Positions 10,094-61,238 of a stretch of DNA of 64,000 nucleotides are shown in pieces. Position numbers and translations under genes: made by a program. The stretch is from an uncultured Candidatus Peribacteria bacterium (GTDB lineage: Bacteria; Patescibacteriota; Gracilibacteria; Peribacterales; Peribacteraceae). The notes beneath the pieces were generated by a model. The model saw nothing but the letters and a program-made list of their open reading frames with translations, ran no database searches and was not told the origin of the DNA. The DNA lies in contig CAZXIV010000002.1 of NCBI GenBank assembly GCA_964640945.1, positions 368 through 64,367 of the forward strand, written 5' to 3'. Position 1 is the first letter of the stretch. Each line of letters starts with the position of its first letter.

Positions 10094-10992
10094 CCCCCCG
10101 CGAGATCGTCGCCGAAGCCTGGGCCATCGCCAAACGCGAGCGGAAGCTCTGGCAATGGGGCTTTTTGGCCTCGTTTTTCGCCATCATGCTCAGCGTGAAA
10201 TTCTTAAGCTTCCAGACGTACATCTTTTACGAGTACTTCTTCGGCGGGAACGAAGCCGGTATGTTCGACATGGAGCTCTGGCTCATCAACAACACCCCTC
10301 AGTGGTTCTGGGTGAGCACGTTCATCATCTTCATTGTGATGCTCATCATCGAGTTTTTTATGCCCCACTTCACCGAGGGGGCCATCATCGGCCTAACGGT
10401 GAAGGCCCACCGCGGCGAGCCGCTCGAAGGCGGCCTGGTGCTGGGCCTGTATAACTTCTTCCCGCTCTTCGCTCTTCATGAATTCTTCATCCTCGCCAGC
10501 TGGAACCTGGTGATTTCGGCGATATCATTGACCCTCCGTTACCTGCCGGAAAGCCTGCACGGCATCATTATACCCACAGTCATCTTCCTCTTCGTCTTTA
10601 GCAATTTCTTCAGCTTCCTGACGAGCTTCGCCCCCGAAGGCTGCGTCATTAAGAAAATGGGGCCGATCGAGAGCGCCATGCGCAGTTATAAGCTGATTGT
10701 CAGTCACGTCAGCCACGTTGTTTTCTTGATGCTGCTGCTCTTCGTTATCACCATCCGTATCCTCATCAACACCGTTATCGTCTTCCTCATTCCCGCCGCG
10801 GTGGTGGGCATCGGTCTCTTGCTGACGTACGTCTTCTCACCCTTCGTAAGCTACCTGATTGGCGCCGGCATCGGCCTGCTGCTCATCGGCGTGGCCAGCT
10901 ACTCGCTCGCCTACCTGCACGTTTTCCGACGCGCTGTCTGGACACTCACTTTCTTAGAGCTCGACGGACGCAAGGATTTGGATGAGCTATAA
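10090..10992 (+). CDS. polytopic membrane protein, hypothetical
   Basis: 300 aa with several hydrophobic helices. The TTG start overlaps the LCP stop by 4 nt. No recognisable family. Confidence 0.5.
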   Translation: MTPREIVAEAWAIAKRERKLWQWGFLASFFAIMLSVKFLSFQTYIFYEYFFGGNEAGMFDMELWLINNTPQWFWVSTFIIFIVMLIIEFFMPHFTEGAIIGLTVKAHRGEPLEGGLVLGLYNFFPLFALHEFFILASWNLVISAISLTLRYLPESLHGIIIPTVIFLFVFSNFFSFLTSFAPEGCVIKKMGPIESAMRSYKLIVSHVSHVVFLMLLLFVITIRILINTVIVFLIPAAVVGIGLLLTYVFSPFVSYLIGAGIGLLLIGVASYSLAYLHVFRRAVWTLTFLELDGRKDLDEL

Positions 10993-11034
10993 GCCTACCG
11001 GCACGGTTCTACCGGACCTCAGAACGCGATCTGT

Positions 11035-11063
11035 TTGACAGTGGACGTTCGTGCACCTAGGAT
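11035..11063 (+). promoter_or_regulatory. lexA promoter TTGACA-N17-TAGGAT
   Basis: Hexamers at 11035-11040 and 11058-11063. The spacer is filled by the palindrome listed next. Confidence 0.55.
11041..11056. promoter_or_regulatory. candidate LexA operator GTGGACGTTCGTGCAC
   Basis: Imperfect 16-bp palindrome between -35 and -10 of lexA. A near-identical perfect-arm copy, GTGGACCTTCGTCCAC, lies at 21424-21439 upstream of rmuC/pcrA. Confidence 0.5.
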
Positions 11064-11089
11064 GGTGGACGACTGTTCCCCTGTCACCC

Positions 11090-11707
11090 ATGACGCTCAC
11101 ACCCCACCAGCGCACGGCCCTCAATTACATCCGTGAGTTCCAGCGCAAGCGCGGCTACTCGCCGTCACTTGCCGACCTGGCCGTGGCCTTCGGTGTCCGG
11201 AGCAAGAACGCTATCGCCAAGGTGGTGAATGTGCTCGTGAACCAGGGCTTTATCGAAAAGGATCCCAAAGGGCGTATCAAAATTATGGATACCCCGCCGG
11301 AGAACAATGCGAGCGAATCGGTGGGTGGCTTCACGCTCCCCCTTTTCGGACCCATCGCCGCTGGTTACGCAGCCCCAGTCGAGGAGCAGGCCGAGGAACT
11401 CGTTTCCATTCAGGATTACATTATCGGCGGCAAAGGAGCCAAGATCTTCCTCCTGCGCGTGAAGGGCGAAAGCATGATCGACGCCGGCATCCAAGAGGGT
11501 GACCTGGTGGTGGTGGAACGCGGCAAAGAGCCCCGCGTGAACGACATCGTGGTAGGCGTGCTCGACGGCGAATACACCTTGAAGCGCCTCCGCAAAGATA
11601 AGGGCAAGTTCTACCTGCAAGCCGAGAACCCCAAATTTCCCGACATGTATGCCGTGGATGAGTTGCAGACCGCGGGCGTGGTGAAGGGGGTGATTAGAAA
11701 GTATTAA
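11090..11707 (+). CDS. lexA: LexA repressor
   Basis: Winged-helix N-terminus ('LTPHQRTALNYIREFQRKRGYSPSLADLA'), cleavage-site region 'GPIAAGYA' and S24 peptidase 'VKGESMIDAGIQEGDLVVV...YTLKRL'. Start taken at ATG 11090 inside track ORF 11051..11707. Confidence 0.9.
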   Translation: MTLTPHQRTALNYIREFQRKRGYSPSLADLAVAFGVRSKNAIAKVVNVLVNQGFIEKDPKGRIKIMDTPPENNASESVGGFTLPLFGPIAAGYAAPVEEQAEELVSIQDYIIGGKGAKIFLLRVKGESMIDAGIQEGDLVVVERGKEPRVNDIVVGVLDGEYTLKRLRKDKGKFYLQAENPKFPDMYAVDELQTAGVVKGVIRKY

Positions 11708-11729
11708 GGGATGAGTATTAAGTATTATG
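11702..11729. repeat. left heptamer array (TATTAAG-like x4), inverted relative to 12088-12115
   Basis: TATTAAG|GGATGAG|TATTAAG|TATTATG. Overlaps the lexA stop and the start codon of the following gene. Confidence 0.7.
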
Positions 11730-12092
11730 GGTGCTATTCAATCCTTCACAGGCCTTATCGCCTGGCAGGAAGCCCACAAACTCGTACTCTTGGTTTATCG
11801 AGTAACTCAGACCTTTCCCAAGGAAGAATCCTTTGGTCTCACCAATCAATTGCGCAGAGCCGCAGTATCTATCTCATCAAATATTGCCGAAGGATTTAGT
11901 AGAAAATCGGCCAAGGAAAAATCTCAATTCTATCGGATGGCATTAGGCTCCTTAACAGAAGTGCAGAACCAGATCCTTATTAGTAGAGACATTCAATATG
12001 TAGCGAAGAAGGAATTTGATGACATCGCCCAGCAAACAGTCATCGTGAGTAAATTGATTAATGGACTGATCAAGTCGGCCAAAAACCCTTAA
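11727..12092 (+). CDS. four-helix-bundle protein (23S rRNA intervening-sequence protein family)
   Basis: 121 aa. 'LIAWQEAHKLVLLVYRVTQTFPKEE..GLTNQLRRAAVSISSNIAEGFSR......FYRMALGSLTEVQNQILIS' matches the family signature. Markedly lower GC than the flanks. Confidence 0.85.
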   Translation: MGAIQSFTGLIAWQEAHKLVLLVYRVTQTFPKEESFGLTNQLRRAAVSISSNIAEGFSRKSAKEKSQFYRMALGSLTEVQNQILISRDIQYVAKKEFDDIAQQTVIVSKLINGLIKSAKNP

Positions 12093-12115
12093 TACTTAAT
12101 ACCTAATACTGAATA
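12088..12115. repeat. right heptamer array CTTAATA|CTTAATA|CCTAATA|CTGAATA
   Basis: Four tandem 7-mers. 12090-12102 is the perfect reverse complement of 11715-11727 (13 bp). Confidence 0.75.
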
Positions 12116-12119
12116 CCCC

Positions 12120-13292
12120 ATGATCGCCCACCTCGATGCCGACTCTTTCTTCGCGTCCGTCCTTGTCCGCAAGGACCCTCGACTCCAAGGCAAACCACTC
12201 CTCGCCCTGGGGATGGGTGGCAGTTGTGTGATTGCAGCGACGTATGAGGCCAAAGCCTTTGGTGTGAAGACCGGCATGCGCCTGATGGAGGCCCGTAAGC
12301 TCGTTCCTGGGGCCATAGAGCTGCCCTGTGACTTCGCGGAGACCGCAGTGGCTTCCCGCCAGATTGAATCGATTGTGGAGGCGTCCTGCCCCATCTTCGA
12401 GCAGATGTCGGTGGATGAGTGGTACATGGACCTCCGGAGCTGCATCGGCGGCGACCCGAGCCATCCCCAAGACTGGGCGACTGCTCTGCGCGACCGCGTG
12501 AAGCGCGAGACCGCCCTCTCGGTTTCGGTGGGGGTCGGTCCAACGAAGCTCCTGGCCAAGATGGCGGGCGAGTACCGCAAGCCCGCGGGCGTGACCGTCA
12601 TCGATGCCCAGGTGGATCTGGCGCTCGAGCCTTTTTTACGCGATCGGCCGGCCGCTGCCATCCCCGGTATCGGCCGCAAGCGCGTCCAAGAAACGGACAG
12701 TCGCGGCTGGAAGACCGCCTGGGATTTCTCGCAGGCTGATCCCCTGCTGGTGCAGCAACTATTCGGACGAGGCGGCCTGGATCTGCGCGCCGAGCTGCAG
12801 GGCGAGTCCGTCTCGGCCGTGACCACCGAATCGGGACCGCCGAAGTCCATCCAGCGCGCCCGGAGTTTCCGCAGCACCAGCGACCGCGACGCCATTTGGG
12901 CAAGCATCTTGGATCACTTGGCCTACACCGTTTTAAAGATGCGCCGCCAGGAATTAGCCTGCCGCGGTGTCACCGTCTGGCTCCGCAACAGCGACTACCG
13001 CGGCGAGGGCGACGCACAGAGCTTCCCCCAAGCGCTCACGAATGAAACCCAGCTCCTGCCCGCGATCCGCCAGGGCTTCGACCGGCTCTACCGGCCGGGC
13101 CAGCGCTACACACAGACCGGCCTCAGCCTCTGGCGCCTGGGCGCCATTGGCGGGCAGCAGTTCTCACTCTTCACGCCGCCGGAGACACTGATGAAAAACG
13201 ATGATCTCCAAAAGGCTGTCGATGACCTGCGCGAACGCTACGGCAAAGACATTGTGAAGCGAGGGTCGGCGCTGACCAGATCTCAGCATTGA
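12120..13292 (+). CDS. dinB: Y-family (translesion) DNA polymerase, DinB/UmuC-like
   Basis: 390 aa. 'IAHLDADSFFASV' catalytic start, 'AATYEAKAFGVKTGM', 'SVDEWYMDL' and 'SVGVGPTKLLAKMA'. Lies downstream of lexA. Confidence 0.85.
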   Translation: MIAHLDADSFFASVLVRKDPRLQGKPLLALGMGGSCVIAATYEAKAFGVKTGMRLMEARKLVPGAIELPCDFAETAVASRQIESIVEASCPIFEQMSVDEWYMDLRSCIGGDPSHPQDWATALRDRVKRETALSVSVGVGPTKLLAKMAGEYRKPAGVTVIDAQVDLALEPFLRDRPAAAIPGIGRKRVQETDSRGWKTAWDFSQADPLLVQQLFGRGGLDLRAELQGESVSAVTTESGPPKSIQRARSFRSTSDRDAIWASILDHLAYTVLKMRRQELACRGVTVWLRNSDYRGEGDAQSFPQALTNETQLLPAIRQGFDRLYRPGQRYTQTGLSLWRLGAIGGQQFSLFTPPETLMKNDDLQKAVDDLRERYGKDIVKRGSALTRSQH

Positions 13293-21423: not shown

Positions 21424-21439
21424 GTGGACCTTCGTCCAC
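21424..21439. promoter_or_regulatory. palindrome GTGGACCTTCGTCCAC (candidate LexA operator) upstream of rmuC-pcrA
   Basis: Perfect 6-bp inverted arms with a 4-nt spacer, 19 nt before ATG 21458 and just upstream of a TACGAT -10 box (21446-21451). Confidence 0.5.
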
Positions 21440-21457
21440 CCGTGGTACGATGCCGCC

Positions 21458-22675
21458 ATGACCCCCATCGAGATCGTCCTCAGCGTTGCCATGGTCGCCG
21501 TTGTCGGCGCCATGATCTGGAAGATGCGCTCCCCCGCCCAAGGCGGAAGCTCTGCGGAGTTAGAACGTGAAAACGCCAAGCTGCACGCCACCTTGGAACA
21601 AGCCCAGAAGGAGGTAGGCAAGCTGCAAAGCGAATTGGAAGCACAGAAGGGCGAATACAAGGAGCTGCAAGGTAAGGGCAAGCAGCTCGACGTGCAGTTC
21701 ACCGAAGTGAAGAATAACCTGGAGCATGCCAAGAAGGACGCCGAGGAGTTGCAGAAAAAGTTGGCCAAGCACGAGGCCGCCGCCGAGCGCCACGAGAAGG
21801 AGCGAGCCACCGAGCTACAGAAACTGGAGGCGGCCAAGCAGAGCCTGGACCAGGAGCGCCAGCGCGTTATCCGGGAGGATGAGGAGGCCCTCGCGCTCGC
21901 CGAGGCGAACCGCGACCGCATTTGGAACGAGCACGAGAAGAACGTGGTCGCGATGATGCAGAGCCTCTGCAAACAACCGCAGTATGCCTTCACATGCTAC
22001 TCAAACACCGACCTGCCCGAGGGCTTCGACGGCAGCCTGAAGCCTGACGTGCTGATTGAGTTTCTCGACCAGTATGTCATCTTCGACGCCAAGAAATCGA
22101 AGAGTGAGAGTCTCTCGACCTACATCAACAACACCGTGAAGGCGACGGTAACCAAGGTGAAGAAAAACCCGAAGATCGCCACCATGATCTTCCTGGTGGT
22201 GCCGAGCGAGGCCATTTCGGAGCTCAGGGCGCACCATGCCGTGCACGACGGCTACACCTTCTACGTCATCTCACCCGAGGCGCTCGCGCCCATCCTCGCC
22301 AGCCTCAAACAAATCACCAATTACGAAGCTTTCGAAGGCATTGACCCGCAGCAGCGCGAGAACATCGTGCAGTTGATCGCCGAATACGACTTCCACATCA
22401 ACTTCCGCAACGCCGCCGACCTTGTCATCTCGAAGATGGGCACTGAGCTTCTCAAAAAGGCCGAGCGCCTGGACCCGGCCATGACGGCCGAGATCACTCA
22501 ACGCAAGCAGCCGATGAACGCCAAAGTGGCAATCGCCGCCGGAGAGCTTCGTCGCCTGGTGGGTTCAGCCGCCGAACAGGTGACGACTATTGATGAACTC
22601 TCCTCGCCGCGCGCGCTGGTAGATGGCGCCCTGGTGAAGGCCGTCAAAAGCGCCGTCACCTCGAAAGAGGACTGA
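21458..22675 (+). CDS. RmuC-like DNA recombination protein
   Basis: 405 aa. N-terminal TM, long Lys/Glu coiled coil, then 'LKPDVLIEFLDQYVIFDAKKSK', resembling the RmuC PD-(D/E)xK-like core. Confidence 0.55.
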   Translation: MTPIEIVLSVAMVAVVGAMIWKMRSPAQGGSSAELERENAKLHATLEQAQKEVGKLQSELEAQKGEYKELQGKGKQLDVQFTEVKNNLEHAKKDAEELQKKLAKHEAAAERHEKERATELQKLEAAKQSLDQERQRVIREDEEALALAEANRDRIWNEHEKNVVAMMQSLCKQPQYAFTCYSNTDLPEGFDGSLKPDVLIEFLDQYVIFDAKKSKSESLSTYINNTVKATVTKVKKNPKIATMIFLVVPSEAISELRAHHAVHDGYTFYVISPEALAPILASLKQITNYEAFEGIDPQQRENIVQLIAEYDFHINFRNAADLVISKMGTELLKKAERLDPAMTAEITQRKQPMNAKVAIAAGELRRLVGSAAEQVTTIDELSSPRALVDGALVKAVKSAVTSKED

Positions 22676-22680
22676 AGTCC

Positions 22681-24984
22681 GTGCCATCGTCCCCCACTCC
22701 GATTACACTCTCGCCCGTGCCTGTCCTCGACACGGATATCCTTCTCGGCCCCCTGAACCCCGAACAGCGCGCAGCCGCCGAGACGACCGAAGGGCCGGTG
22801 CTCATCTTGGCCGGCGCCGGCAGCGGCAAGACCAAAGCCCTGACGCACCGCATCGCCTATTTAATGAGCAAGGGCGTGGAGCCCTACCAAATCCTGGCCG
22901 TCACGTTCACCAATAAGGCCGCCCGCGAGATGAAGGACCGCATCCGCGCCCTCCTCCATTTAACCGGCGAGGACCAGAGCGACCTCATCACGCCGGGCGC
23001 CGGACGCATGCCCACCATGGGCACGTTCCACTCGGTGTGCGTGCGTATCCTCCGCCGCGACATCGAGCACCTCGGCCGCGACCGCAGCTTCGTCATCTAC
23101 GACTCCGACGACCAAGAGCGCCTGATGAAGGAAGTACTCCGCGAGCAAAAGATCGACGAGTCGATGCTCAAACCCCGCGCCGCCCTCTCGGCCGTGAGCC
23201 GCTGGAAGTCGGAAGCCTACCTACCCAAAGACGCCCACACCCAGGCCACGAGCGCCCGCTTGGAGATGATGGCCAACGCGTATGCCTCCTATCAAAAAGC
23301 CATGATGGGCGCGAACGCCATGGATTTCGACGACCTACTCCTGGAGACCGTTCGCCTCTTCCATGAATGCCCCGACGTGCTCGCGCGCTACCAGAACACC
23401 TGGCGCTACGTGCACGTAGACGAGTACCAAGACACGAACCACGTGCAGTACCTGCTCATCATGCTGCTGACGAAGACGCACAAGAACCTGTGCGTCATCG
23501 GCGACCCCGACCAGTCGATCTACGGTTTCCGCGGCGCCGACCTCCGGAACATCCTGGAGTTCGAGAAGGAATACCCCAACGCCAAGCGCATCACGCTCGA
23601 GCAGAACTACCGCTCGACGCAGCTCATCCTGAGCGCGGCTGACGCCGTCATCGCCCAGAACCCCAACCGCCCCAAGAAGACGATGCGCAGCGACCGCAAG
23701 GAAGGCCCGAAGGTGCTTATCCAGGAACTGCGCGACGAGCGCGGCGAAGCCGAAGAAGCCATCCGCGCGGCCAAGCAGCTGGCTAAGGAGGGCGTGCCGC
23801 TCTCGGACCAGGTGATCCTCTACCGCACCAACGCCCAGTCGCGTCTCTTTGAAGAAGCCTGCCTGCGCGAGGGTATGCCCTACCGCCTCTTGGGCGGCAC
23901 CAAGTTTTACGCCCGCCGCGAAGTGAAGGACGTGCTCGCCTACCTGCACGCCATCTTGAATCCCAAGGATGTGCTCTCGCTCCTGCGCATTATCAATGTG
24001 CCCGCCCGCAAGATCGGCCAGACGACGCTCGAGAAGATTCAGGCGCACTGCCAGGCCGCCCAAATTTCTCTCTGGCAAGCCGTGCAAGACCCCGAGAGCA
24101 TCCCCGGCCTGGATGCCGGCGTGAAGCAGCGCTTGGCCGTGTTTGCCGCGCTCATCTTGCGCTTCCGGAGCCTGGCCGACAGTAAGCGCGTGGGCGAACT
24201 CACGGACCAACTGCTCGACGCGCTCAACATGCACCAGTGGCTGATGGAGGATGATGACGGCGAGGAACGCTGGCAGAACGTGCGCGAACTGCTCTCCGTT
24301 ATGCAGAAATATGAGCACTTGGAACCCAAGGCGTCGCTCACAGCCTTTTTAGAAGAAGCCGCCCTCGTCTCGGAGGCGGACAAGCTCGGCGACGAAGACC
24401 GCCCCTCGCTCACGCTGATGACGGTGCACCTCTGCAAGGGCTTGGAGTACGAGCACGTGATGGTGGCCGGCTGCGAGGAGGGCATCTTCCCCCATAGTTC
24501 GAGCCTCTTGGACCGCGCCCAAATTGAGGAAGAACGCCGCCTGATGTACGTCGCCATGACGCGCGCCAAGACACACCTGCGCCTACTCCTAACGCGCAGT
24601 CGCCTACTCTGGGGCCAGCGCCAGACCAACGCCAAGAGCCGCTTTCTTGATGATGTTCCGGCCGAGGTCTGCGAGCGCCGCAGCGACGACGTCCTCTCGG
24701 CTTTTGCTTGGGCCAGCGAGCGCGCGGTCACTCATCCCAGCCGCTCCTCGGGCAAAAAGCTCGATCCCTTCGTGCAGCAGGAAGTGAGCATCGAGTTTAA
24801 CCAGGATCTCGGCCAGGACGACGGCGAGTCGCAAGCGGAAGTGGATATCGGCTCGCGCATCGAACACCAAGTCTTCGGCCAAGGCACGGTCACGCGCCGC
24901 CGCGGCGATGTGATCGACGTGGCCTTCGACGACGGCCGCCAAAAGACCCTTGCCCTCAGCGTCGCCAAAGTGCGGATACTTTGA
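22681..24984 (+). CDS. pcrA: ATP-dependent DNA helicase PcrA/UvrD (SF1)
   Basis: 767 aa. 'AGAGSGKTKALTHRIAYL' (Walker A), 'VHVDEYQDTN', 'GDPDQSIYGFRGA', 'LEQNYRST', 'MTVHLCKGLEYEHV', 'RLMYVAMTRAK' and a C-terminal Tudor-like 'GSRIEHQVFGQGTV'. Confidence 0.9.
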   Translation: MPSSPTPITLSPVPVLDTDILLGPLNPEQRAAAETTEGPVLILAGAGSGKTKALTHRIAYLMSKGVEPYQILAVTFTNKAAREMKDRIRALLHLTGEDQSDLITPGAGRMPTMGTFHSVCVRILRRDIEHLGRDRSFVIYDSDDQERLMKEVLREQKIDESMLKPRAALSAVSRWKSEAYLPKDAHTQATSARLEMMANAYASYQKAMMGANAMDFDDLLLETVRLFHECPDVLARYQNTWRYVHVDEYQDTNHVQYLLIMLLTKTHKNLCVIGDPDQSIYGFRGADLRNILEFEKEYPNAKRITLEQNYRSTQLILSAADAVIAQNPNRPKKTMRSDRKEGPKVLIQELRDERGEAEEAIRAAKQLAKEGVPLSDQVILYRTNAQSRLFEEACLREGMPYRLLGGTKFYARREVKDVLAYLHAILNPKDVLSLLRIINVPARKIGQTTLEKIQAHCQAAQISLWQAVQDPESIPGLDAGVKQRLAVFAALILRFRSLADSKRVGELTDQLLDALNMHQWLMEDDDGEERWQNVRELLSVMQKYEHLEPKASLTAFLEEAALVSEADKLGDEDRPSLTLMTVHLCKGLEYEHVMVAGCEEGIFPHSSSLLDRAQIEEERRLMYVAMTRAKTHLRLLLTRSRLLWGQRQTNAKSRFLDDVPAEVCERRSDDVLSAFAWASERAVTHPSRSSGKKLDPFVQQEVSIEFNQDLGQDDGESQAEVDIGSRIEHQVFGQGTVTRRRGDVIDVAFDDGRQKTLALSVAKVRIL

Positions 24985-59261: not shown

Positions 59262-61238
59262 TTAACGGGGGCCTCCTCCACCTCCACCGCCCATGCGGAG
59301 GAGCTGGCCGGGGTTGGCCGCGGTGGACGACGTGCCGATAGCCACGTTGGTGGCAGTGACGGTCTGTCCTTCGTTCAGACCAGAAAGGATCTCGGTGTAG
59401 CGGCCGTCGCTGAGGCCAATCTGGACCGGCAGGCTGAGGCCGTTGGAGACAACGGTCATCTGGCCATTGACGCTGCGCAGGGCCAAGTTGGGCACTACCA
59501 ACACCTGCTCGCGGCGCTCAGTGTCGATCTGCACGGTGGCCGTCATGCCCGAGAGAATGGTGAGGTCCTTCGGAGCCGGTAGACGCACGTCCACTTGATA
59601 GGAGACGACGCCAGACTGTTCGACTGGGGTCGGATTAATAAGTGCGATTGTGCCTGTCATCGTGCGACCGACGACGGCATCCAGGACGATAGAAGCCGGC
59701 ATCCCCGCCTTCACACGTACCACGTCCGTCTGGTCGAGTAGGACAGTGACGAGCAACACGTCAGGGTTCTCGATCGTCACCGACGAGGTATCGCCAGTGT
59801 CGAGCAAGTTATCGCCCACCTTGTAATCGATATGGCGGATGACGCCGTCGAAGGGAGCGCGCAGTTCGTATTCGTCGGCGGTTTTGGCTGTTTTGGAATA
59901 GGAAGCGGAGCGCTGGGCGACGTCGTTCTGCTTCAACTGAATATTCACGTCGCTACTGCGCTTGGCGCTCTCAAGCGCAGATTGCTTGGAGCGCAGACTC
60001 TCTTCGGCTGAGGCGATGGCATCATCTTGCTCCTGAAAGCCGCCGGGCGTGCGAGCCTGGAGCAACTCAAGGTTCTCCTTAGCCAGGGTCAGGGCATTCT
60101 CAGCCGACTGGACCGCGTTCTGCTTGCTGCCAACAGTCACACTCACAGACCCGTTCGTGCCCGAGATATCCGCCAACTCCGAGAGGGCATCATCGGCCTG
60201 ACTGATGAGGTTGCTCGCCGTGTCGCGGTTGCCGCTGACAGTGCTGCGCAAGGCCGTGAGCTCCTCGGCCGGGAAAGTGGTGGTGTCGGTGGTGGCCCCG
60301 CGCATCATGTCGTAGGTTTTTTCCGCCAAAACTGAGAGCTTCAGAGCCAGATCTTTGGCTTTCTCTAGCGCCTGACGGAGGGTGGTCGGATTTTCTTCGG
60401 AAGTCAGCGACGTGCCGAAATCTTGACGCATCTCCAGCGCACTGTTCACACCATCGTAGTAGGCGAATTCCACCTCCCGCCCGAGGACGGGATCGTTGCC
60501 GAGGAGTGAGTCGATCTCAATGTCGTACTTGCCGTTCTGTGGACGGGCGGCCGTGCCGCGGGTGAGCGTTGAGTAGAAAGAATCAAGGAGTTTCTCGGAG
60601 GAGTTCAGCACCGATTGGGCGGTGGAACCGATGTCCTGATACTGGGTGTCTTCAGCCTTGGTGAGATCACGCTTCGCTTGTTCGAGAGCAGCGGTCTTAT
60701 CCAGCACGGCACGCTCGGCGGCGGCTAGGTCGGACGGCAGCTGCTGTTGAGCCACCTGCCAATCGTTCTGCACTTGGTCGAGCTGGCGAGCAGCCTGGTC
60801 CACCGCCGCTTGGGCGTCCTGTAGCGATTTCTCCCGATCAGCCTGGAGCTGGTCGAGCTGCAACTTACTGGCCGAAATAGACAGGGCTGCTTGGCGGATG
60901 TCGGACTGCACGGAGGTTTGATCGAGACTGGCGATGAGCTGGCCTTGTTTGACGATGTCACCCTCCTTCACGGCCACCTTAGCGATGGTGCCACGCTGGT
61001 TGAAACGCATCTGCTGCTCGCTGGCGAACGTCACTTCGCCTACGGCCTTCACGGACGAGACGATGTCACGGCGCTCTACCGTGGCAGTGGTGTTACCCGC
61101 CGACGACGCCGCTGGGGACGACAACATGATGTAACCAACACCAACAACGAGCACGGGTACCAAACCAATGAGGAAGCTCCGCCGCTGCATGGCAGCGACT
61201 AAGCCGCGGACACGATCAAGAATGGCGGTACTGTTCAT
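59262..61238 (-). CDS. periplasmic adaptor (HlyD/MacA membrane-fusion family) with a very long coiled coil
   Basis: 658 aa. N-terminal TM, lipoyl-like 'GDIVKQGQLIASLD', about 350 aa of coiled coil, then barrel domains and 'TEILSGLNEGQTV'. Confidence 0.8.
   Translation of the reverse strand: MNSTAILDRVRGLVAAMQRRSFLIGLVPVLVVGVGYIMLSSPAASSAGNTTATVERRDIVSSVKAVGEVTFASEQQMRFNQRGTIAKVAVKEGDIVKQGQLIASLDQTSVQSDIRQAALSISASKLQLDQLQADREKSLQDAQAAVDQAARQLDQVQNDWQVAQQQLPSDLAAAERAVLDKTAALEQAKRDLTKAEDTQYQDIGSTAQSVLNSSEKLLDSFYSTLTRGTAARPQNGKYDIEIDSLLGNDPVLGREVEFAYYDGVNSALEMRQDFGTSLTSEENPTTLRQALEKAKDLALKLSVLAEKTYDMMRGATTDTTTFPAEELTALRSTVSGNRDTASNLISQADDALSELADISGTNGSVSVTVGSKQNAVQSAENALTLAKENLELLQARTPGGFQEQDDAIASAEESLRSKQSALESAKRSSDVNIQLKQNDVAQRSASYSKTAKTADEYELRAPFDGVIRHIDYKVGDNLLDTGDTSSVTIENPDVLLVTVLLDQTDVVRVKAGMPASIVLDAVVGRTMTGTIALINPTPVEQSGVVSYQVDVRLPAPKDLTILSGMTATVQIDTERREQVLVVPNLALRSVNGQMTVVSNGLSLPVQIGLSDGRYTEILSGLNEGQTVTATNVAIGTSSTAANPGQLLRMGGGGGGGPR

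Follow-up and report, generated by a model that had tools for sequence, protein, structure and literature searches.

A candidate LexA operator (SOS box) in Candidatus Peribacteraceae: a conserved palindrome of the lexA promoter and its predicted regulon

The lexA locus and the uvrD pair

Two groups of genes are at the centre of this analysis: lexA with dinB downstream of it, and a gene pair made of a 405-aa protein gene and a UvrD/PcrA-family helicase gene (Table 1). Both are found in a stretch of 64,000 nt, referred to below as the window, which belongs to contig CAZXIV010000002.1 of assembly GCA_964640945.1, from a Candidatus Peribacteria bacterium (Peribacteraceae). The genome of this member of the Patescibacteria/CPR amounts to 1.27 Mb in 39 contigs, with 58.5% G+C, and the closest counterparts of its LexA, RecA and other proteins are those of MAGs labelled Candidatus Peribacteria, Peribacteraceae or Peregrinibacteria. 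With regard to public data, four RNA-labelled runs contain the organism as assembled contigs, and the depth over them is flat, over genes and spacers alike. DNA identical to positions 10600-12100 of the window also turns up in many public runs of unrelated origin, among them metagenomes of fish, mosquitoes and surfaces as well as runs of several named organisms, which suggests that the bacterium is a common contaminant of water systems or reagents.

Judged by its sequence, the gene at 11090 is a true lexA. Its product scores above the TIGR00498 equivalog cut-off (141.4 vs 110.95 bits) and has the architecture of LexA, namely an N-terminal winged-helix DNA-binding domain followed by a C-terminal S24 peptidase domain. 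The Ala-Gly cleavage site and the catalytic Ser and Lys align with those of E. coli LexA (7b5g/1jhh), with IAAG matched to VAAG, GESM to GMSM and LKRL to VKRL. Further downstream, the product of dinB matches the NCBIfam models of DNA polymerase IV with scores below their cut-offs. These two genes are separated by a gene of the 23S-rRNA-IVS-protein family; some relatives have such a gene at that place and others have none. With or without this cassette, 31 of 43 relatives have dinB 3' of lexA and on the same strand, and the gene is probably co-transcribed with lexA.

How is the lexA promoter built? A consensus scan of positions 10900-11200 returned a single sigma-70-like promoter, TTGACA-17-TAGGAT, which agrees with the consensus at 10 of 12 positions. 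Positions 11035-11063 read TTGACA-GTGGACGTTCGTGCAC-C-TAGGAT, and the spacer measures 17 nt because it consists of the 16-mer, here called O1, plus one C. The initial annotation had placed a candidate SOS box in exactly this spacer, and all of its coordinates are correct. A second 16-mer, O2, which the initial annotation had not listed, follows the -10 hexamer, at a centre-to-centre distance of 24 bp from O1.

Table 1. Coordinates of genes and promoter features in the window
Feature	Position	Strand	Basis or remarks
-35 hexamer TTGACA, lexA promoter	11035-11040	+	sequence, promoter scan; TTGAC[ACT] kept in 43 related lexA loci
O1 box GTGGACGTTCGTGCAC	11041-11056	+	between -35 and -10; 21.7 bits (matrix without the window's genome)
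-10 hexamer TAGGAT, lexA promoter	11058-11063	+	sequence, promoter scan; CTAnnATGG kept in relatives
O2 box GTGGACGACTGTTCCC	11065-11080	+	just 3' of -10, over expected transcription start; 14.7 bits
lexA, 205 aa	11090-11707	+	Pfam LexA_DNA_bind PF01726 and Peptidase_S24 PF00717
23S-rRNA-IVS-protein family gene, between lexA and dinB	11727-12092	+	Pfam PF05635
dinB (Y-family DNA polymerase IV)	12120-13292	+	Pfam IMS and IMS_C
Perfect palindromic box GTGGACCTTCGTCCAC	21424-21439	+	18.1 bits; 18 nt 5' of ATG 21458
Extended -10 TGGTACGAT	21443-21451	+	6 nt 5' of ATG; leaderless-type promoter
405-aa protein gene	21458-22675	+	N-terminal hydrophobic segment, coiled coil
UvrD/PcrA-family helicase gene	22681-24984	+	Pfam UvrD-helicase and UvrD_C

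This arrangement was compared with that of 43 Peribacteria lexA loci, whose LexA proteins share 67-89% identity with the one described here. All 43 species show the same succession at lexA: TTGAC[ACT], a 16-mer, C, TAnnAT, G and then a second 16-mer. The consensus of their O1 boxes is G T G K A C R W Y C G T M C A C, that is, GTGKAC-N4-GTMCAC, with C6, G11, T12, C14, A15 and C16 invariant, and A5 (40/43) and C10 (42/43) nearly so. Two mirror positions are free: 4, with mostly T or G, and 13, with mostly A or C. O2 is kept as GTGKACGTTCGTYC in about 41 of the 43 species, and its left arm is strong and its right arm weaker. The first mark of an SOS box, a dyad-symmetric site that overlaps the core promoter of lexA itself, is therefore found twice over, with O1 between -35 and -10 and O2 past the -10.

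As the initial annotation had pointed out, the O1 box recurs almost exactly at 21424-21439, upstream of the 405-aa/uvrD pair. In most relatives, TGnTAnnAT lies 5-8 nt downstream of this box. Searches of Pfam and NCBIfam assigned the 405-aa protein to no known family and gave only sub-threshold matches of the coiled-coil type; its homologues occur in Peribacteria, spirochaetes and Methanoregula. A likeness to RmuC, suspected because of the layout, was dropped, as the searches gave it no support. The top NCBIfam match of the helicase is PcrA, at 781 bits, below the cut-off. A side observation concerns the leaders: at several box-bearing promoters the -10 lies just 6-9 nt 5' of the start codon (21443-21460 in the window; contigs C6 and C12 of the same genome).

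Recurrence of the box in the genome and its relatives

Could the two 16-mers of the window resemble each other by chance? When up to one mismatch is allowed, GTGGAC-N4-GTSCAC has 6 strand-matches in the window, at 3 places, where 0.53 would be expected, and none of 100 shuffles reached 6. The third place, 59579-59594, has one mismatch, lies inside the coding region of an HlyD-family protein, and is probably a chance look-alike. The exact pattern occurs in the 1.27-Mb genome only at 11041-11056 and 21424-21439. For the looser perfect dyad GTGNAC-N4-GTNCAC, the size and base composition of the genome predict about 1.5 occurrences, so that an occasional match has to be expected; this genome holds five, all of them upstream of genes, the fifth being 10 bp 5' of ruvB. 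Coincidence is refuted by conservation, since orthologous promoters of dozens of species share the box, as opposed to 0 of 349 control windows, and its probability can be regarded as negligible. Shuffles and cross-species comparison thus agree with the initial annotation, for which two such 16-mers were unlikely to be a coincidence.

All 39 contigs were then scanned with a position weight matrix derived from the O1 boxes of the 43 relatives only; since these boxes come from lexA promoters, part of what the matrix captures, at positions 7-10 of the spacer and in the invariant half on the right, adjacent to the -10, may stem from promoter constraints rather than LexA contacts. Six matches reach at least 16 bits, and all of them are intergenic, in a genome whose non-coding part is about 23% by a crude gene call. 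The lexA O1 box, which serves lexA and probably dinB downstream, scores 21.7 bits, a value equalled by a box 19 bp 5' of the ORF for RarA/MgsA. They are followed by a box 5' of a 77-aa ORF, the small gene (20.4 bits), by the one at 21424-21439 before the 405-aa gene and uvrD (18.1 bits), by one in the divergent spacer between comM and yraN, with a second box 48 bp off (16.6 bits), and by one 18 bp 5' of the ATG of recA, with a second box 83 bp off (16.5 bits). Five of the six precede genes of DNA repair or recombination identified with Pfam: LexA/DinB, RarA, UvrD, ComM/YraN and RecA. No box was found in this genome at uvrA, uvrB, uvrC, ruvA, mfd, recG or dnaE, genes that were identified by signature motifs only. 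The genome-wide enrichment anticipated at the outset is accordingly present at recA, the uvrD operon, comM/yraN, rarA, the small gene and ruvB, but not at uvrA, uvrB or ruvA.

The relatives were searched at the same genes. At recA (-250 to +60), a box of at least 13 bits is present in 18 of 22 Peribacteria species and in 0 of 204 control windows. For the 405-aa gene, at the same threshold, 12 of 15 species have it, as does none of 145 control windows. For comM the count is 29 of 30 genera at 11 bits or more, so that ComM is counted as a core member of the predicted SOS regulon. This gene encodes a Mg-chelatase-like/YifB helicase and is divergent from yraN (UPF0102); in the window's genome each of the two has one box (contig C22:10986-11049). 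The expectation that relatives would keep the box was borne out before lexA, recA, the 405-aa/uvrD pair and comM. The second mark of an SOS box, a motif that recurs 5' of recA and other repair genes beyond chance, is found both in this genome and in its relatives.

The small gene lies outside the window, on the minus strand of contig C6 (46627-46857), and encodes 77 aa. Its box, GTGTACGnnnGTACAC, is near-perfect, and a box of 18.7-26.3 bits is present in 18 of 20 loci of this gene. A second, distal box was considered as a general feature of the small gene and rejected, as it is seen in the window's genus only. The protein has the conserved pattern IDCS...WV..P...HV.LP...LQ.LGC.VT. It has no match in Pfam, and a word-index search returned only the protein itself. 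Its AlphaFold model (pLDDT 83) displays a beta-beta-alpha-beta-alpha-beta fold, and the PDB match is not significant. About 184 representatives are found among 1.8 billion proteins. The small protein thus appears restricted to the family and linked to the SOS response, and it could be a lineage-specific SOS effector, e.g., a division inhibitor.

Other genes are less constant. At ruvB, the box occurs in about 7 of 30 genera. As for rarA, its box reaches 21.7 bits here and is absent elsewhere in the genus and in nearly all of 30 genera, among which three weak sites (8.6-11.8 bits) were counted. The gene was for this reason rejected as a conserved target, and its box is considered a species-level gain rather than part of the core. 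Accordingly, ruvB and rarA are, as predicted from these comparisons, variable members of the regulon. From the conservation counts it follows that the conserved regulon comprises lexA(-dinB), recA, comM/yraN, the small gene and the 405-aa/uvrD pair. This predicted core of the Peribacteraceae has non-classical members: ComM/YraN, the family-restricted alpha/beta protein of about 80 aa, and the 405-aa coiled-coil protein.

Throughout, the boxes overlap core promoter elements, in the spacer, in the +1 region or just 5' of an extended -10. At recA and rarA, a -10-like hexamer plus G comes immediately 5' of the box. At the 405-aa gene, it ends 5-8 nt 5' of the extended -10, and the ATG comes 6 nt past this -10. 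At ruvB and the small gene, the -10 itself, TACACT, comes from the right arm GTACAC and a T, with the ATG 6-9 nt further on, and 6-8 nt in the case of the small gene. Most species have two boxes at recA, 78-85 bp apart (contig C1:31277-31375 in this genome; loci L081-L099). The proximal one comes right after the -10, while the distal one abuts the stop codon of the gene before it and has a CATAAT-like hexamer on its 3' side. This spacing, constant at about 8 helical turns, is suggestive of cooperative binding or of looping, or else of a second promoter.

Such a close association with promoters raises another question: is the palindrome a promoter or structural element, such as a sigma-factor specificity element or a DNA or RNA hairpin, instead of a repressor site? 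The box is always in or beside core promoter elements, its right half coincides with the -10 (TACACT) in some promoters, and the flanking CTAnnATGG is conserved as well. However, its place with respect to -35 and -10 varies, from the spacer to +1, to the 5' side of an extended -10, and to about 82 bp upstream at recA. Moreover, the dyad is conserved in the manner of a protein site, with the central N4 and the fourth position free, and not in the manner of base pairing. Finally, the box is limited to a handful of repair genes, whereas the other promoters of the genome lack it. On balance, this explanation is very improbable, and a repressor site remains the preferred one.

Known LexA operators and the boxes of sister families

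The operator of Gram-positive LexA (DinR), the Cheo box, is CGAAC-N4-GTTCG (PMC3091678). Like the Peribacteraceae box, it has arms of 5-6 bp around a 4-bp spacer, in the form xGxAC-N4-GTxCx with an AC-N4-GT inner core. Both lie over the core promoters of lexA and recA, with multiple boxes at lexA. The geometry of the Cheo box, an AC...GT core with a 4-bp gap, is evident in the O1 boxes of the relatives (A5 in 40/43; C6, G11 and T12 each in 43/43). The arms differ, being TGKAC/GTMCA here and CGAAC/GTTCG in the Cheo box, whose A/T position is free in Peribacteraceae and mostly T or G. Arms of the GAAC-N4-GTTC type were found in none of the 43 lexA O1, 20 recA and 14 405-aa-gene boxes, and in 2 of 43 O2 boxes. 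What distinguishes the Peribacteraceae box is the strong conservation of the outer GTG...CAC triplets, higher than that of its other parts, and the free fourth base.

Another point of comparison is the cyanobacterial LexA box, RGTACNNNDGTWCB or AGTACWNWTGTACT (PMC3091678). Its GTAC-N4-GTAC core is common to many Peribacteraceae boxes, e.g., GTGTACGATCGTACAC, and length and spacing are equal. The flanks are TG/CA in Peribacteraceae and A/T in cyanobacteria, and the central base of the arm is degenerate in the former. Only 3 of 43 O1 boxes fit the cyanobacterial GTAC-N4-GT[AT]C; neither box of the window does, their arms being GGAC/GTGC and GGAC/GTCC.

The E. coli lexA promoter has two SOS boxes of the type CTGT-N8-ACAG (PMC8565304). 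Its layout is shared, with an autoregulated lexA, two operators over the core promoter, and recA, uvrD, ruvB and dinB as targets. The sequence is unrelated: CTGT and ACAG arms 8 bp apart are absent from both 11041-11056 and 21424-21439. The DNA contacts of E. coli LexA are made by Ser39, Asn41, Ala42, Glu44 and Glu45 (PMC3091678). Peribacteria LexA keeps the Ser, Asn and Ala and has Ala and Lys in place of Glu44 and Glu45. The initial annotation held that the box matches neither the Gram-positive nor the E. coli type. This stands as far as the consensus is concerned, but not as a lack of relationship with the Gram-positive box, in view of the shared xGxAC-N4-GTxCx. By its sequence pattern, the Peribacteraceae box is a relative of the Gram-positive/cyanobacterial class and not a wholly new design.

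Few regulators have changed their binding motif as often as LexA. Sanchez-Osuna, Barbe and Erill 2017 (Environ Microbiol 19:3465) reportedly compared the LexA network across Patescibacteria. The contents of that study aside, a full-text literature search found nothing that links LexA with Peribacteria, Peregrinibacteria or Gracilibacteria. The divergence of the LexA motif between phyla is well documented (PMC8565304).

With regard to the class to which the Peribacteraceae belong, LexA identity is at least 66% within this family and at most 45% to the other families. The sister families (lexA loci L235-L257, recA loci L258-L274) keep the layout of the lexA promoter, TTGACx-16-mer-CTAnnATGG-second box, with other 16-mers. 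In Peribacteraceae, GTGKAC-N4-GTMCAC goes with a LexA helix 3 that reads SKNA[IV]AKV, apart from minor variants, in each of the 43 species. GTGAGT-N4-ACTCAC (= GGTGAG-N6-CTCACC; lexA loci L239-L250) is accompanied by SDNGILKHL, GTGAAn-N4-nATCAC (L235-L237, L253) by SVNGVIKHL, and the classical GAAC-N4-GTTC (L251, L254, L256) by SVNSVCQYL. One further 16-mer of the sister families is GTGAGCG..CGCAC. The box type at recA is that at lexA in the Peribacteraceae and in the GTGAGT families; in the GTGAAn and GAAC groups, a matching recA box was found in only some of the genomes looked at. Compared with the Peribacteraceae, the sister families have the same architecture, the same 16-bp frame GTG-N10-CAC and the same targets, lexA and recA; what differs is the three inner bases of each arm and, with them, helix 3 of LexA. 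The claim that the box is lineage-specific is in line with this picture, as the sister families have other boxes at the same promoter position and other LexA recognition helices.

The data make it rather likely that LexA switched its DNA specificity several times within one CPR class, while the GTG-N10-CAC frame and the promoter architecture stayed fixed.

A different layout is observed in other Patescibacteria (L238, L245, L249, L252, L255 and many of L044-L080), where a tiny hydrophobic ORF, e.g., MIINSFLALFALTIAFGFLYIINHVR, precedes lexA; alternatively, a conserved gene ending in ...STFMF is located 5' of it. No box of the GTG...CAC type is visible directly 5' of lexA at these loci, so that the operator, if any, would be further upstream.

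A predicted SOS regulon

The SOS response is the main transcriptional answer of bacteria to DNA damage. Taken as a whole, the comparisons indicate that the 16-mer is very probably the primary LexA operator, or SOS box, of Candidatus Peribacteraceae. LexA is proposed as the binder because the type of box co-varies with helix 3 of LexA across the class, which is the strongest piece of indirect evidence. Could a regulator other than LexA bind the box and control genes of DNA repair and recombination, lexA included? The set does have members that are not classic for SOS, such as comM, yraN, the small gene and the gene of the 405-aa coiled-coil protein, and uvrA and uvrB are outside the regulon. 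Against such a regulator, the box is within the promoter of lexA itself in 43 of 43 species, and in the sister families its type shifts with the recognition helix of LexA, in lexA and recA promoters alike. In addition, the core of the regulon, lexA, recA, dinB and uvrD, is the textbook set of LexA. Another regulator is therefore improbable, if somewhat less so than a promoter or structural element.

How would LexA act on these promoters? A LexA dimer would bind the dyad GTGKAC-N4-GTMCAC. At lexA, the protein bound to O1, between -35 and -10, and to the weaker O2, over the transcription start, would exclude RNA polymerase; lexA would hence repress itself, and probably dinB too. The same box lies over or beside the core promoters of recA, comM/yraN, the small gene and the 405-aa/uvrD pair and, in this genome, of ruvB and rarA. 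At every boxed promoter, the bound dimer would occlude RNA polymerase, which is the classical way of LexA repression. Upon DNA damage, RecA filaments would induce LexA, in which the cleavage site and the catalytic residues are in place, to cleave itself, and the promoters would be released.

These data add one more lineage, with a new variant of the motif, to a known system; nothing established is overturned, and a specialist would not be surprised. With the box known, the SOS regulon becomes predictable in the Peribacteraceae, which are uncultured and whose genomes measure about 1.2 Mb. The regulon predicted in this way is a small one, with lexA-dinB, recA, comM/yraN, the uvrD operon and the small protein as its members. 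For the class, the sister families offer a compact natural data set on the joint change of specificity of a repressor and its whole regulon. If the repeated switch of LexA specificity is true, they would provide a natural series of matched helix/operator pairs, from which the recognition code of the LexA winged helix could be read.
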